64,000 bases of DNA. It comes from Candidatus Poseidoniales archaeon (lineage in GTDB: Archaea > Thermoplasmatota > Poseidoniia > Poseidoniales > Poseidoniaceae). Each line of letters opens with the position of its first letter. Within the stretch, counting starts at the first letter, position 1. A program made the position numbers and the translations under genes. Location of the stretch: positions 6,628 to 70,627 of the forward strand of contig JAYODQ010000006.1 in assembly GCA_038106355.1 (NCBI GenBank). Direction: 5' to 3'. The notes under the pieces are model-generated. The model saw only the letters and a list, made by a program, of their open reading frames with translations, was not told where the DNA came from and did not search any database. This document shows, in pieces, positions 58,803-63,699 of the stretch.

Positions 58803-59747
58803 ATGGCAGAAGATCCTTTGCATGAACAAAAGGGTCTCGAGGGGCCTCGTCGGCGAGCAAAAACCGCAACCTCAGCCTTTGGCGTTTCAAAGAGGGAAGG
58901 CCATGATTCTTCAGCGTTTTATACTGCAAAAATGAATCAAGCTTTCATATCATCGAGGGAAGTTGGCGATGCAGATTCGATTCCACCTCATCTGAGCAAC
59001 ACTATTCATTGCCACGATTCCACCGACCTTCATTTCATACCGAACAACTGTGTCGACCTTGTCGTCACATCTCCGCCTTACAATGCTACCAAAGAATACG
59101 ATGAAGATTTGACCTTTGATCAATATTTGAATCTGCTTCGCGGTGTGTTTTCAGAATGCTATCGAGTCTTGGCTCCTGGAGGTCGAATGGTCGTGAATGT
59201 GGCTAATCTTGGCAGGAAGCCGTACTTGCCGCTTACTTCGTACATCAATGTGATGATGATTGAATTAGGGTTCTTGATGCGAGGCGAAATTATTTGGGAC
59301 AAATCGGCGAGTGCGGGAAGTTCTTGTGCTTGGGGTTCATTCCAATCAGCAAGCAATCCATGTTTACGCGATGTGCATGAATATTTGCTCGTTTTTTCAA
59401 AAGGAGACTTCAAGAAATCAAAGGTTGGTCCTGATAAAAATGTGAAACAGAACACCATCGATAAAGATGAATTCATTCAATTTTCAAAATCAATTTGGTC
59501 TTTTTCGACCGAGCGAGCCTCACGTGTTCAACATCCAGCGCCGTTCCCCATCGAATTACCTCGAAGATGCATTGAATTCTACTCGTACGAAGGCGATGTC
59601 GTGCTCGACCCATTCCTCGGCTCCGGTTCAACTGCACTTGCTGCTCTCTTGACCAATCGAACATACATCGGCGTTGATATTTCAGAGGAATATTGCAAGA
59701 CAGCTCAACAACGTGTAGCAGATCTGCTTCCTTCCCTTAAATTGTGA
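58803..59747 (+). CDS. Beta-class amino-DNA methyltransferase (probably N4-cytosine), orphan
   Basis: Catalytic VTSPPY precedes SAM-binding VLDPFLGSGST; HPAPFP; HEYLLVF. Confidence 0.88.
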   Translation: MAEDPLHEQKGLEGPRRRAKTATSAFGVSKREGHDSSAFYTAKMNQAFISSREVGDADSIPPHLSNTIHCHDSTDLHFIPNNCVDLVVTSPPYNATKEYDEDLTFDQYLNLLRGVFSECYRVLAPGGRMVVNVANLGRKPYLPLTSYINVMMIELGFLMRGEIIWDKSASAGSSCAWGSFQSASNPCLRDVHEYLLVFSKGDFKKSKVGPDKNVKQNTIDKDEFIQFSKSIWSFSTERASRVQHPAPFPIELPRRCIEFYSYEGDVVLDPFLGSGSTALAALLTNRTYIGVDISEEYCKTAQQRVADLLPSLKL

Positions 59748-59812: not shown

Positions 59813-61093
59813 ATGGAGGAGTCGCTTGGTCTACAACTTGGTCCCGAAGGAGAAGATTGGCGAGTTCCGGTTCAAGAATTAGAAACCAGACAACAACAGT
59901 TCGCGCATCTTCTTGCAGAACATGGCCTTCAGGGTGCACTTATCCACCATCCTATTGATCTCTATTACTTCACGGGAGGTCGACAAGATTCCACCTTTTT
60001 CATACCAGCCAAGGGGGCCCCCGGTTCAACCGAAGATGGTGGTGATGGACCGATAGCCTTTGTTCGTCGTTCGCTTCGTCGAGCCGTTTACGAAGCTGGT
60101 GGCGACAACGCACCGCATCGAATCGAGGATTTTGGTCGATTGTCACAATTTTCAGAGCGGTTGAAATCAATGGGTGTTTCTAGCAAACCATGTTTGCAGT
60201 ACGGCGAAATCCCGTCTGAATTTGGTAAACGGTTTGAAGCAGCATTGCAAGGACTCGAAGGCGAGTTCCAAGACACGACTTCTCTGGTTCATGCGATGAG
60301 GGAAGTGAAGTCGGAATGGGAATTGGAACAGATGCATATCGGAGCACAAGTCCAACGAAGAATGTTTGACACCATTGAAGCCGTTGGAGGCGAAGGGATG
60401 TCAGAACTTGACCTCGTCGCTGCAGCCGAAGCCATCAGTCGAAGCGAAGGATTTGGTGGCAATGTGCAAATGCGACGATACCCTCTCCAATGCGATAGAG
60501 GCGTGATTGTAGCAGGTAGAGCAGGCGGCGTCCCATCTTTTTTCGATTCGGCCATTGGAGGCGAAGGCCCTCATCCTCTGTCGGGCATGGGTTCGGGATT
60601 TAACAAGGTCAAAAGGGATGAACCAGTGCTCGTTGACCTTGTCCATGTTCATCGTGGATATGTTGTTGATACGACGCGCATCTTTGTCTCAGGTCGTTTA
60701 AACAATGTGTGGGAGGAGCGTCTTGATGATATGCTCACGGTCAAAAATACCGTCATTGATGTCCTTGACCAAGGTATGAATTGCAGCCAGGCTTGGGAAG
60801 AGGGTCTTGAGGTTGCTACCGAGTTAGGCCATGCTGACCATCTCATGGGTATGGCTCCTGACCAAAGTAAATTCCTAGGCCATTCCGTTGGTTTACAACT
60901 TGACGAAAGTCCGGTGATAGCCAAAGGCTTTGACCGTCCGCTTCCAATCAATGGGGTCATGGCCATCGAACCAAAAGTTGTCCATCCTCAAGGGTCAATA
61001 GGAACTGAAGATACGTGGGTTCGAACTCAAGATGGACTTGAGCCCATCACCGCTGATGCCGATTTGCCTTGGCTGATTCAATGGGATGCTTGA
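59813..61093 (+). CDS. Xaa-Pro peptidase (M24)
   Basis: Creatinase-like N-terminal domain; VKSEWEL, LVDL...GYVVDTTR, GHSVGLQLDESP, MAIEP, GTEDT. Confidence 0.88.
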   Translation: MEESLGLQLGPEGEDWRVPVQELETRQQQFAHLLAEHGLQGALIHHPIDLYYFTGGRQDSTFFIPAKGAPGSTEDGGDGPIAFVRRSLRRAVYEAGGDNAPHRIEDFGRLSQFSERLKSMGVSSKPCLQYGEIPSEFGKRFEAALQGLEGEFQDTTSLVHAMREVKSEWELEQMHIGAQVQRRMFDTIEAVGGEGMSELDLVAAAEAISRSEGFGGNVQMRRYPLQCDRGVIVAGRAGGVPSFFDSAIGGEGPHPLSGMGSGFNKVKRDEPVLVDLVHVHRGYVVDTTRIFVSGRLNNVWEERLDDMLTVKNTVIDVLDQGMNCSQAWEEGLEVATELGHADHLMGMAPDQSKFLGHSVGLQLDESPVIAKGFDRPLPINGVMAIEPKVVHPQGSIGTEDTWVRTQDGLEPITADADLPWLIQWDA

Positions 61094-61143: not shown

Positions 61144-61932
61144 ATGGGCGCAAAACCGTATGCACCAAGTCATATCGCAGCCGTTGCATCTTCCTTCACA
61201 TCGATGCGATTATCAGGTGAGGTTAAGGATGAGTTGGTGACCTTATTGCTTGGGCAGTTGGATGACTATGTTCCGGTGCTTGAACAAGAAACCCTCGCCC
61301 AGGACAGTGAACGTAAAACACTCGACGACCCATTTCGAACAAGACTCAATTATAATCGGACAAGGGAACATATGATCGACAGAATTCAATCGGTGGATTC
61401 CGTCGGCTCTGCAGCCGTGCAAGCAGGTATTGAACATCTCGAACAGTACCTTGCCAAGACGCTGCGATTTGCCCAAGAAGCGGCGGAACGAGACAGGGTC
61501 TCAACAATTAAGCCCCGACACCTCAAAGCCGCCCTCGTTCAAATGGAAGAACAAAACGATGAGCAACAAGAAGAATCCAGTGCATCGTTCGATACCGAAT
61601 TTGTCGCAGGGCAGGTTGGTGGCGTGGTGACGGCAACTACCATCCAATCTCTTGCGAGGTCGATGGCGAAAATGCCCGTCACCAAAGAAGCCGTAGAAGA
61701 ATTACTTGAAACATACACATTGGTGCTCGAGGAACTGGAAAGCGATATTCGTCAGCATGCTCAACTTGGCCGAAACCCGCAATTGTTCATCGAATCAATA
61801 CAGCGAATGAAGGGTTTGATGACACTTGGTTGGATTCGTTCAATGGTTTCCCGAGCTGCAAAGAATGCTGCAGAACAAGGAAAAAGAGCCATTGACATCG
61901 ATGATATTGTTCATCTCGACCCATTTGCATAG
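61144..61932 (+). CDS. Multi-histone-fold protein (three tandem histone folds)
   Basis: Three alpha1-L1-alpha2-L2 units: MRLSGE...ERKTL, DSVGSAA...RVSTIKPRHL, MPVTKEA...GKRAIDIDDI. Confidence 0.72.
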   Translation: MGAKPYAPSHIAAVASSFTSMRLSGEVKDELVTLLLGQLDDYVPVLEQETLAQDSERKTLDDPFRTRLNYNRTREHMIDRIQSVDSVGSAAVQAGIEHLEQYLAKTLRFAQEAAERDRVSTIKPRHLKAALVQMEEQNDEQQEESSASFDTEFVAGQVGGVVTATTIQSLARSMAKMPVTKEAVEELLETYTLVLEELESDIRQHAQLGRNPQLFIESIQRMKGLMTLGWIRSMVSRAAKNAAEQGKRAIDIDDIVHLDPFA

Positions 61933-61989
61933 TCCATTTTCCAATACAATGAAATAATGCCTTTGAATAGTTGAACGAGAGGTGCAGTG

Positions 61990-62520
61990 ATGAACTTCAT
62001 CGGGCAATCTGTACCAGAATGGTCATTGCAAGGTTTTGGACCAAGCGGAAGTCAAGAATATTCCTCGAAGGCATTGTTTGGAAACTGGTATGTCATCTAT
62101 TGGTACCCGAGAGATTTTTCCTCGGTATGCCCAACTGAAGTATTAGCACTGAATCGCCATCTTGAGGATTTTGAAGATGCAGAAGTGACCTTGTTTGGAT
62201 GTTCGCTTGATTCCATTGAAACGCATGAACGATGGGTTTCCCAACAGGATATTTTCCCTGAAGGTATTCATCACGTGCTTCTCTCCGATGTAGACGGTAA
62301 GGTCACAAAGTCATTTGATCTCATTCACGAAGCATCGGGTTTACCATGTCGTGGACTGGTGATTGTCGATGAATTTGGCAAGATTCAGCATTATTCCCAA
62401 AGTTCACTCATCGTTGGACGTCAACCGAAATCAATTCTTCGAATGGTTGAGGCCTTGAAATCAAATGGTCTTTGTTCGGCAACGTGGCAAAAAGGTGACA
62501 AACACATTGGTGAAGATTGA
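61990..62520 (+). CDS. 2-Cys peroxiredoxin (AhpC/Prx1-like)
   Basis: YPRDFSSVCPTE, SLDSIETHERW, RGLVIVD, resolving Cys in LCSATW. Confidence 0.9.
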   Translation: MNFIGQSVPEWSLQGFGPSGSQEYSSKALFGNWYVIYWYPRDFSSVCPTEVLALNRHLEDFEDAEVTLFGCSLDSIETHERWVSQQDIFPEGIHHVLLSDVDGKVTKSFDLIHEASGLPCRGLVIVDEFGKIQHYSQSSLIVGRQPKSILRMVEALKSNGLCSATWQKGDKHIGED

Positions 62521-62855
62521 TGATACAGATAGAACAATTTGATGAGAGTTCGTTGAATTCGATGCCTAAAATAGAACTTGCTGTGCTTGTTTTCGGTCGT
62601 AGCAATTGCCAAAATTGTTCCAATTGGCATGCTGAATTACGTCAAGCAGCGGCATCTGGAGATATACCAACGTGTAGAATTTTTTTGGTAAATCTCGATT
62701 CAGGCGTGGCTGAAGACCTAGCAGAATCGTATCGATGGGTCAACAATATCGATGTCCTGCCCATGAACATCATTCTCGTTCAAGGCGAGGTCAAAAAAGA
62801 ATGGGCTGGTGGCACCATCCAACAATTATCACACCGTCTTTCCCGCTATTTGTGA
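62517..62855 (+). CDS. Thioredoxin-like protein
   Basis: CQNC motif, VNLD, VLP cis-Pro loop; 4-bp overlap with the peroxiredoxin. Confidence 0.75.
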   Translation: MMIQIEQFDESSLNSMPKIELAVLVFGRSNCQNCSNWHAELRQAAASGDIPTCRIFLVNLDSGVAEDLAESYRWVNNIDVLPMNIILVQGEVKKEWAGGTIQQLSHRLSRYL

Positions 62856-62859
62856 TGGC

Positions 62860-63699
62860 ATGTCTGCTTCGACAGTGATGTTGTCCGCTGTTTTTGCAGG
62901 TGTCGTTGCAACGTTGGTGACCGTTGCCATCGAGAAGTGGGGCGGTGTTATCGGCGGAATTTTGGGAACTGTTCCTTCAACCATAGTACCAGCATCCATC
63001 GGAATGTACATGATTTCAACGCCTGAAGAATTTCTTGAAAGTATGGCTATTATTCCATTTGGTATGATGTTGAATGCTATGTTCCTCGGTGTGTGGCTCA
63101 TTTTACCTTCGAAGTTTCCGCATTCTAACCATCTTCTTGCAAAAACTACGACGTCATCCATCATCTTCTGGGTTGTATGCGGCTCAGCATTGTTTTTTGC
63201 TTTGGAATCACAAGTATTTTCGAACATTCCTCCACAACAACTCGGGTACGTCGGCTTCTTTGGTGTCTTTTGTGTTGCCCTTTACTTTAACATCAAACGC
63301 CTTCCCGCACCGGGGGGCCATCGTAAAGTTAGTCGACTCACGCTCTTCATTCGTGGCATCATGGCTGCTACTGCCATTGGATTCGCAGTGGCCCTATCCC
63401 ATCTTCATCAACCACTCCTTGCAGGTCTAGCCAGTGTGTTTCCAGCTATTTTCCTCACAACAATGGTTGCTTTGTGGCACGCTCAAGGTCCTTCGGTACC
63501 AAAGGGTGCTGCAGGCCCAATGATGCTCGGTGGGATGAGTGTGGCTGTTTTTGCTCTTCTTGCGATGGTTTGTTTTCCCCTTTTCGGGCCTTGGTTTGGA
63601 GCCATATCCTCATGGTTAGGGGCTATTGTGCTGTGGTCGGTACCTGCGTTTTTTGCATTACAAAAGTATAGAAATCGAGAGCACAAAAGTCTCGCATGA
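62860..63699 (+). CDS. Multi-pass membrane protein with internal duplication (DUF3147-like)
   Basis: About eight TM; paired motifs GGILGTVPST and AGLASVFPAI. Confidence 0.65.
   Translation: MSASTVMLSAVFAGVVATLVTVAIEKWGGVIGGILGTVPSTIVPASIGMYMISTPEEFLESMAIIPFGMMLNAMFLGVWLILPSKFPHSNHLLAKTTTSSIIFWVVCGSALFFALESQVFSNIPPQQLGYVGFFGVFCVALYFNIKRLPAPGGHRKVSRLTLFIRGIMAATAIGFAVALSHLHQPLLAGLASVFPAIFLTTMVALWHAQGPSVPKGAAGPMMLGGMSVAVFALLAMVCFPLFGPWFGAISSWLGAIVLWSVPAFFALQKYRNREHKSLA

Follow-up and report, generated by a model that had tools for sequence, protein, structure and literature searches.

The gene at positions 61144..61932 (+ strand) of the window, which is the whole 64,000-nucleotide stretch of DNA from a Candidatus Poseidoniales archaeon analysed here, encodes a protein in which the initial annotation recognized three histone folds within one polypeptide. 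This locus raises the question of how many histone folds the chain holds, how those folds pair with one another, and what a protein of this kind may do in the cell.

The gene and its published family

The gene consists of 262 codons plus a stop, and no other long open reading frame competes with it on either strand. The product is an acidic multi-histone-fold protein of the Poseidoniales with a pI of 5.04 and a net charge of -12, and its N-terminal half is near neutral. Within its own genome (1.9 Mb, 93.8% complete) the gene was found to be single-copy and to be the sole match for PF00808, PF00125, and the family profile. Two other nucleoid proteins, Alba (E 1.3e-12) and MC1 (E 5.6e-23, at a contig end), coexist with the histone-fold gene in this one genome, in which an HU-type protein was not detected.

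The gene is directly preceded by an M24 peptidase (59813-61093), and a DNA methylase N6/N4 (PF01555, E 2.8e-50) is found two genes upstream at 58803-59747. A peroxiredoxin-like gene (61987-62520) lies downstream, together with a 112-aa open reading frame (62517-62855) and a 296-aa membrane open reading frame (62809-63699). Neither of the latter two has a Pfam match, and their relatives occur in 2 and 9, respectively, of 12 neighbourhood loci that were compared, all from one related genus. The gene order is kept in these loci, with the M24 peptidase upstream in 9 of the 12 and a peroxiredoxin-like gene downstream in all 12. The neighbourhood of peptidase, histone-fold gene, and peroxiredoxin gives no functional link.

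A word-indexed search returned 363 relatives at E<=1e-3. The 120 of these that were listed are all 252-281 aa in length with a query coverage of 98-100%. Their named sources are Poseidoniaceae, Poseidonia, or unclassified Euryarchaeota, with the sole exception of a contig labelled as Crocinitomicaceae bacterium (P0016). An exhaustive search among 50%-identity representatives gave 73 relatives, which include full-length ones at 38-50% identity and four at about 21%. The sequences P0166, P0174, P0177, and P0184 are full-length relatives (233-262 aa) at about 21% identity that lack both the arginine in loop L1 of the first histone fold (HF1) and the SVGS loop of the second (HF2). No match was obtained in the class's two remaining sampled families. 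A viral origin of the gene was considered and rejected after a scan of viral contigs, in which 36 stretches matched the search pattern and none encoded a relative.

The distribution of the gene was determined by applying the family profile to 201 genomes of the class, with the window's own genome not counted in its own family. Full-length relatives were found in 87 of the 89 genomes sampled from this family, and the profile matched in 16 of the 66 from the sister family of the same order. More than one copy of the gene per genome is rare. No matches were found in the two further families of the class (0/43 and 0/2). The 50 sister-family genomes with no match include whole genera (0/12, 0/10, and 0/7) with genomes that are more than 90% complete, and the gene is therefore dispensable there. 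In five sister-family genomes without the gene, only weak PF00808 matches were found (three of the five), inside open reading frames of 743-759 aa, and these are probably AAA+ lid regions. The sister-family lineages that lack the family gene thus seem to have no histone-fold gene at all.

The initial annotation allowed that the family might already be described, and this turned out to be so. The gene is a member of "cluster 5, acidic quadruplets", which is defined in PMC13260811 (Nat Commun 2026) by 130 sequences with a median length of 262 aa and a pI of 5.2. According to the description of cluster 5 given there, the family occurs only in Poseidoniales, and no genome that carries it has another histone gene. 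The protein from the window agrees with that description in its length of 262 aa, its pI of about 5 (family median 5.25), its source, and its status as the only histone-fold gene. The agreement extends to the presence of several histone-fold motifs per chain, with the classic signatures mainly in the first motif, and nothing in the published definition sets the protein outside cluster 5. The family, with a mean column identity of 56-67%, is better conserved than the phrase "not well conserved" used in PMC13260811 suggests.

In the account of PMC13260811, cluster 5 is known through clustering and AlphaFold3 models alone. The N terminus of the representative pairs within the chain, and the C termini take conformations resembling a histone-fold dimer through interchain interactions. 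No four-helix-bundle assemblies are reported for the representative in that account, and the authors suggest that the function of cluster 5 is unrelated to genome compaction. The main text of the prokaryotic histone catalogue of Schwab et al. 2024 (PMC11390915) contains neither Poseidoniales nor quadruplets. The family is likewise absent from the main text of a 2026 review of double histone folds (PMC13088155), where quadruplets are only viral, and Marine Group II is not mentioned in the paper on HTa (PMC6877293).

The N-terminal half as a predicted histone doublet

The motifs quoted in the initial annotation are all present in the translation where they had been placed: MRLSGE (21-26), RKTL (57-60), SVGSAA (86-91), RVSTIKPRHL (118-127), EEQNDEQQEESS (135-146), PVTKEA (178-183), and GKRAIDIDDI (246-255). 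The full-length protein was modelled with AF2 from a 40-sequence alignment (mean pLDDT 74.9), and the pTM of 0.50 leaves the relative placement of the two halves unfixed. Six loop bridges are found in this model, three of type L1 and three of type L2, at residues 22-23, 59-60, 86-87, 121-122, 179, and 250. The helices of the N-terminal half (aa 1-136) span residues 8-15, 25-53, 70-80, 89-116, and 124-146.

HF1 (aa 1-64; 61144..61335, + strand) is predicted to consist of alpha1 (8-15), an L1 loop that includes R22, alpha2 (25-53), and the L2 sequence ERKTL (56-60). The third helix of HF1 had been described as apparently missing, and the AF2 model has indeed no helix between residues 54 and 69. 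HF2 (aa 65-136; 61336..61551, + strand) begins with the lead-in RTRLNYNRTR and continues through alpha1 (70-80), the L1 loop SVGS, alpha2 (89-116), the L2 loop RVSTIK, and an alpha3 helix that starts at residue 124. The assignment of HF2 comes from the AF2 model, a PF00808 match to aa 84-131, and alignments with H2A.Z over aa 70-136. HF2 is the only complete histone fold of the chain in the model.

In a Foldseek search with the full model nothing matched at E<=0.001, and the top matches were single chains of H2B-H2A(.Z) at 2.6e-3. We therefore relied on VIA-align, with which this model was compared against 48,161 chains. Residues 1-140 superpose on the Melbournevirus doublet 7n8n_A (Z 13.5, 133 residues aligned, rmsd 2.2), on HMk from M. 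kandleri (1f1e_A; Z 12.7, 130 residues aligned, rmsd 2.9), and on an H2A-H2B fusion (8uqe_B; Z 13.3). The other structural neighbours of the N-terminal half are 9cvt_B (Z 11.8), the histone domain of SOS (Z 11.1), core chains of SAGA (Z 11.7 and 11.3), and 1wwi. The handshake pair of helix-loop-helix-loop-helix units is thus found in the predicted N-terminal half by comparison with solved doublets (Z 12.7-13.5), and this half of the model is a histone pseudo-dimer whose first fold is without alpha3.

The doublets of HMk (1F1E) and Melbournevirus (7N8N and 9CVT) share with this protein the formation of a pseudo-dimer by two folds in one chain, at a sequence identity of 12-15%. The first fold of 9CVT is likewise shortened, as described in PMC12297534. 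Unlike these doublets, HF1 is here entirely without alpha3, and the chain continues into an acidic linker and a degenerate second copy of the doublet.

The initial annotation proposed a scan with PF00808 as a check on the histone folds. The profile does match (E 0.0053), but the score of 17.4 bits is under the curated cut-off of 21.4 bits, and the relatives score better. The match to PF00125 (14.7 bits) is also under its cut-off of 26.4, and the NCBIfam search gave a match at chance level only (E 1.6). Among 52 members of the family, PF00125 matches 44 and PF00808 matches 14 at E<=0.01, with best E-values of 2.1e-5 and 5.7e-7, respectively. The histone signal at the level of sequence is weak for this protein alone and clearer across the family.

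In the PDB sequence search HF2 (61336-61551) resembles eukaryotic H2A and H2A.Z more than any archaeal histone, and the 60 best rows shown are of the H2A type throughout. HF2 has in common with these proteins an R-x-x-L...R lead-in, and its alpha3 likewise starts with P-R-H-L. It differs at the arginines of the H2A.Z "RVG" and "KRI" sequences, to which S86 and T121 align. The comparison of the family profile with an H2B-H2A.Z chain is borderline (E 1.3e-4). The look-alikes found outside the family with a language model are archaeal proteins of doublet size (score 0.87), which is itself a lead. With E-values that are borderline and archaeal doublets as the nearest language-model neighbours, an origin of the N-terminal half from H2A or from a viral H2B-H2A doublet is a lead only.

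The linker and the C-terminal half

The acidic linker recognized in the initial annotation exists. It spans aa 137-159 (61552..61620, + strand), and residues 140-159 are disordered in the AF2 model (pLDDT <50). The linker has a median net charge of -8.5 across the family, with a pI of about 4.05, and it is the least conserved part of the protein, with a mean top-residue frequency of 0.36 over 52 members.

The C-terminal half (aa 160-262) had been read as a third histone fold with an insertion of 35-40 residues in alpha2. The excess is real, since 64 residues (181-244) separate the third L1 from the third L2, about 35 more than the 28-29 of the alpha2 helices of HF1 and HF2. In the reading that follows from an insertion, HF1 and HF2 would pair in cis, and the third fold would be left unpaired and would dimerize in trans to give a six-fold particle or a bridge between DNA segments. 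The AF2 model has exactly three L1 and three L2 loops, as that reading calls for. The representative described in PMC13260811 has interchain pairing at its C terminus, and pairing in trans is a property that monomer models cannot reveal.

The profile comparison suggests a different origin for the C-terminal half. Column blocks of a 54-sequence alignment were compared with hhalign, using the reversed C-half and 100 column shuffles as controls. HF1 (aa 5-48) aligned with aa 161-204 at a probability of 90.4 and a score of 31.6, compared with 8.8±1.9 for the shuffles (maximum 16.0). The entire N-half aligned with the C-half at a probability of 91.6 and a score of 41.4 over 89 columns, and the controls gave 11.7 for the reversed C-half and 12.0±2.3 for the 100 shuffles (maximum 23.7). 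The HF2-like part of the C-half is weak when compared alone, with a probability of 13. The alignment of the two halves contains two gaps, which remove ERKTLDDP (L2 of HF1) and aa 84-100 (L1 of HF2 and the first half of its alpha2). In the N-half the two removed loops are precisely those that form a pair, and an entire L1-L2 site would thus have been lost at once. The C-half consequently resembles a copy of the whole N-terminal doublet with internal deletions, and this homology to a doublet, not to one fold, is a point against a third fold with an insertion.

The first part of the C-half (aa 160-209; 61621..61770, + strand) is the part with hhalign homology to HF1. It contains alpha1 (164-174), the L1 bridge at residue 179, and alpha2 (181-208). 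The second part (aa 210-262; 61771..61929, + strand) would be the remnant of an HF2-like fold without L1 and the first half of alpha2. It comprises a turn at G209/P212, a helix at 212-226, a kink at G229, and a second helix at 229-244. The end of this part, as assigned from the C-half model and the gap in the hhalign comparison with the N-half, holds the L2 bridge at residue 250, a short alpha3, and a DPF tail. The G209/P212 turn lies between two long helices and would break the alpha2 helix of a single third fold. The turn is invariant in 40 close relatives, and G209 varies in distant ones, so that it is conserved within the family and not universally.

The C-half was also modelled alone from 55 sequences (pLDDT 85.7, pTM 0.77). 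In whole-protein numbering its helices span residues 164-174, 181-207, 212-226, and 229-244. Residues 179 and 250 are the only bridge residues in this model, so they must pair with each other there, in cis. The C-terminal unit is thus not left unpaired in the model. The C-half model was found to match whole doublets, with Z values of 7.8 for 1f1e_A (100 of 108 residues aligned), 7.6 for 8uqe_B, 7.5 for 7n8n_D, and 7.3 for 1wwi, and it also matched AAA+ lids, with RuvBL1 at Z 8.2 (71 residues aligned, rmsd 2.3) and further matches to MCM, clamp-loader delta, Lon, and DnaA, although a Z of about 8 is moderate evidence for a helical domain and may reflect a common arrangement alone. No single histone chain is present among the best 50 structural matches of the C-half model. 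The profile comparison, the conserved turn, the bridge in cis, and the alignment to whole doublets favour a shortened doublet copy, and we regard a third fold that dimerizes in trans as improbable, though the C-halves of two chains may pair with each other.

The C-half is therefore described here, on the basis of the model, as a hairpin paired in cis that resembles both whole doublets and AAA+ lids, with a tie between the two. It superposes on the lids of RuvBL1, MCM, clamp-loader delta, Lon, and DnaA with Z 6-8.6 over about 70 residues at an rmsd of about 2. The AAA+ lid and the C-half are alike in being composed of two helix-strand-helix units paired in cis; they differ in that the helices of the C-half have about twice the length. 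Pfam gave no ATPase family for this protein, and 4 of 52 members match AAA+ lid families of Pfam at E<=0.01, a weak signal. Alva et al. 2007 (PMC1847821) proposed that the histone fold was derived from an AAA+ lid by a 3D domain swap, and both the likeness of the C-half to the lids and the four lid matches fit that proposal as it is described there. Because the profile comparison relates the C-half to the N-terminal doublet of the same chain, its likeness to the lids probably arose secondarily, by a return to the unswapped form.

These results reconcile two counts. The three folds of the initial annotation correspond to loop pairs, and the four motifs described for cluster 5 in PMC13260811 correspond to fold-derived units. 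By internal homology the chain would hold four such units, with three L1 and three L2 loops and one complete alpha1-L1-alpha2-L2-alpha3 fold. To the published description of the family in PMC13260811 the present analysis adds that HF2 is the sole complete fold in the model, and that the C-half appears to be a deleted copy of the N-half doublet.

Pairing and predicted function

A homodimer was modelled with ESMFold2 from two full-length copies, using a 52-row alignment and three controls. The score was 0.79, compared with 0.00 for the best control. Of 30 proteins whose solved structures are pairs of one chain, 20 reached this mark, as did 1 of 23 with single-chain structures. At least 64% of the contacts are shared between runs, with a partner pLDDT of at least 69. 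The confident interface is confined to aa 2-131. The C-half lies outside it in the dimer model, whereas the representative in PMC13260811 is reported to pair between chains at its C terminus.

The best interchain contacts are those of a handshake between HF1 and HF2, with residue 22 against 122, residue 60 against 86-88, and residues 34-39 against 95-106. These contacts would be expected in a reciprocally swapped homodimer, in which HF1 of each chain pairs with HF2 of the other and the two chains make up a closed particle with eight fold-derived units. Such pairing in trans would be favoured by the 9-residue link found in place of alpha3. However, the AF2 monomer satisfies the identical contacts in cis, and co-variation is blind to the difference. 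The histone handshake is a textbook complex, and the favourable score of the dimer model may reflect likeness to solved handshake structures. In addition, the description of the representative in PMC13260811 has intrachain pairing at the N terminus. We therefore consider the swapped homodimer to be doubtful. What stands of the initial proposal that HF1 and HF2 pair within the chain is the pairing itself, seen as a cis pseudo-dimer in the AF2 monomer; the dimer model makes the same contacts in trans, and the direction of the pairing is not told by it.

The distribution of conserved basic residues was used to assess DNA binding. At 17 positions at least 80% of 52 members have K or R, and 13 of these positions are in the N-half: K4, R22, K28, R57, K58, R65, R67, R72, R74, R108, R118, K123, and R125. 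They sit at L1, at L2, and in the arginine-rich stretch that takes the place of alpha3 in HF1 and runs up to alpha1 of HF2. At R22, R57, and K58 a basic residue is present in at least 92% of the 52 members. The conserved basic residues of the C-half (R172, R203, R232, and R237) are all outside its loops, and no position in the linker is basic in at least 80% of the 52 members. The six-fold or DNA-bridging particle of the initial annotation found no support, and the lack of any conserved basic residue in the loops of the C-half argues against a second DNA-binding site for bridging.

R22, in the first loop of HF1, lies opposite T121, an invariant residue in L2 of HF2, and this pair resembles the arginine-threonine pairing that is one of the universal histone signatures listed in PMC13260811. 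The L1 arginine is absent from HF2 (S86) and from the C-half (P178). Since 13 of the 17 conserved basic residues are at the loops and lead-in of the N-half, we favour a role for this half as a non-polymerising module that binds and bends DNA. This role is likely, and it is held with moderate confidence, as judged from the conserved residues. The points against it are that the protein is acidic overall, that the L1 arginine is missing in HF2 and in the C-half, and that the gene is dispensable in much of the sister family.

An alternative is that the protein does not bind DNA and that its histone folds serve as a scaffold for protein-protein interactions, as in TAFs, Spt3 of SAGA, and the histone domain of SOS. 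The acidity of the whole protein is consistent with such a role, and the SOS histone domain and the SAGA core chains are among the structural neighbours of the N-half. The genome has MC1 and Alba available as nucleoid proteins, 50 of the 66 genomes from the sister family gave no match, and a function apart from genome compaction is what the authors of PMC13260811 suggest in their account of cluster 5. A scaffold does not readily explain 13 strongly conserved basic residues at the canonical DNA-contact loops and the alpha1 lead-in, including R22 opposite T121, and no conserved partner gene is nearby, the neighbours being a peptidase and a peroxiredoxin. The scaffold is possible, though we think it unlikely.

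The explanation that we consider probable, with some reservation, is one of four fold-derived units of which one is complete, arranged as an N-terminal doublet with a basic ridge and a C-half derived from a deleted doublet, in a protein with a discrete DNA-binding role. The architecture is drawn from predicted models and profile comparison, and DNA binding and all of the roles are what we infer. HF1, without alpha3, and HF2 would form a histone pseudo-dimer that keeps the conserved basic ridge, followed by the acidic disordered linker. The C-half would be a duplicate of the doublet from which one L1-L2 site was removed, consisting of L2 of the first unit and L1 with the first half of alpha2 of the second. 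This duplicate would fold back as a helical hairpin with its remaining L1 and L2 paired in cis, in a shape near that of the AAA+ lids. The N-half would bind and bend one histone-dimer's worth of DNA. The C-half may be a structural or partner-binding module that does not bind DNA, and the acidic linker is a possible modulator. HF1 and the first unit of the C-half differ from HMfB-type (hyper)nucleosomal histones in being without alpha3 (AF2), and because of this the protein would not be expected to stack into a hypernucleosome. It would therefore act next to MC1 and Alba as a discrete DNA-binding protein, either architectural or regulatory.

A bolder combination, which we hold to be quite unlikely, is that the C-half doublet lost the two loops of one L1-L2 site together and collapsed to a self-paired module resembling an AAA+ lid, while the N-halves of two chains swap HF1 and HF2 to make a closed particle of eight units with a basic ridge. 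If this were true, the collapse of the C-half would have undone, in nature, the domain swap that is proposed to have created the histone fold, and one gene would build a closed, non-polymerising particle with a basic DNA-binding ridge.

The C-half in any case provides a natural system in which to test the link that has been proposed between histone folds and AAA+ lids. Its apparent origin as a deleted copy, and the concentration of conserved basic residues in the N-half, point to aa 1-136 and aa 160-262 as the constructs of choice. The uncultured Poseidoniales rank among the most abundant archaea of the plankton, and most of their phylum is without histones. For the question of how Poseidoniales use the histone fold, this lone and unusual gene offers the main clue.
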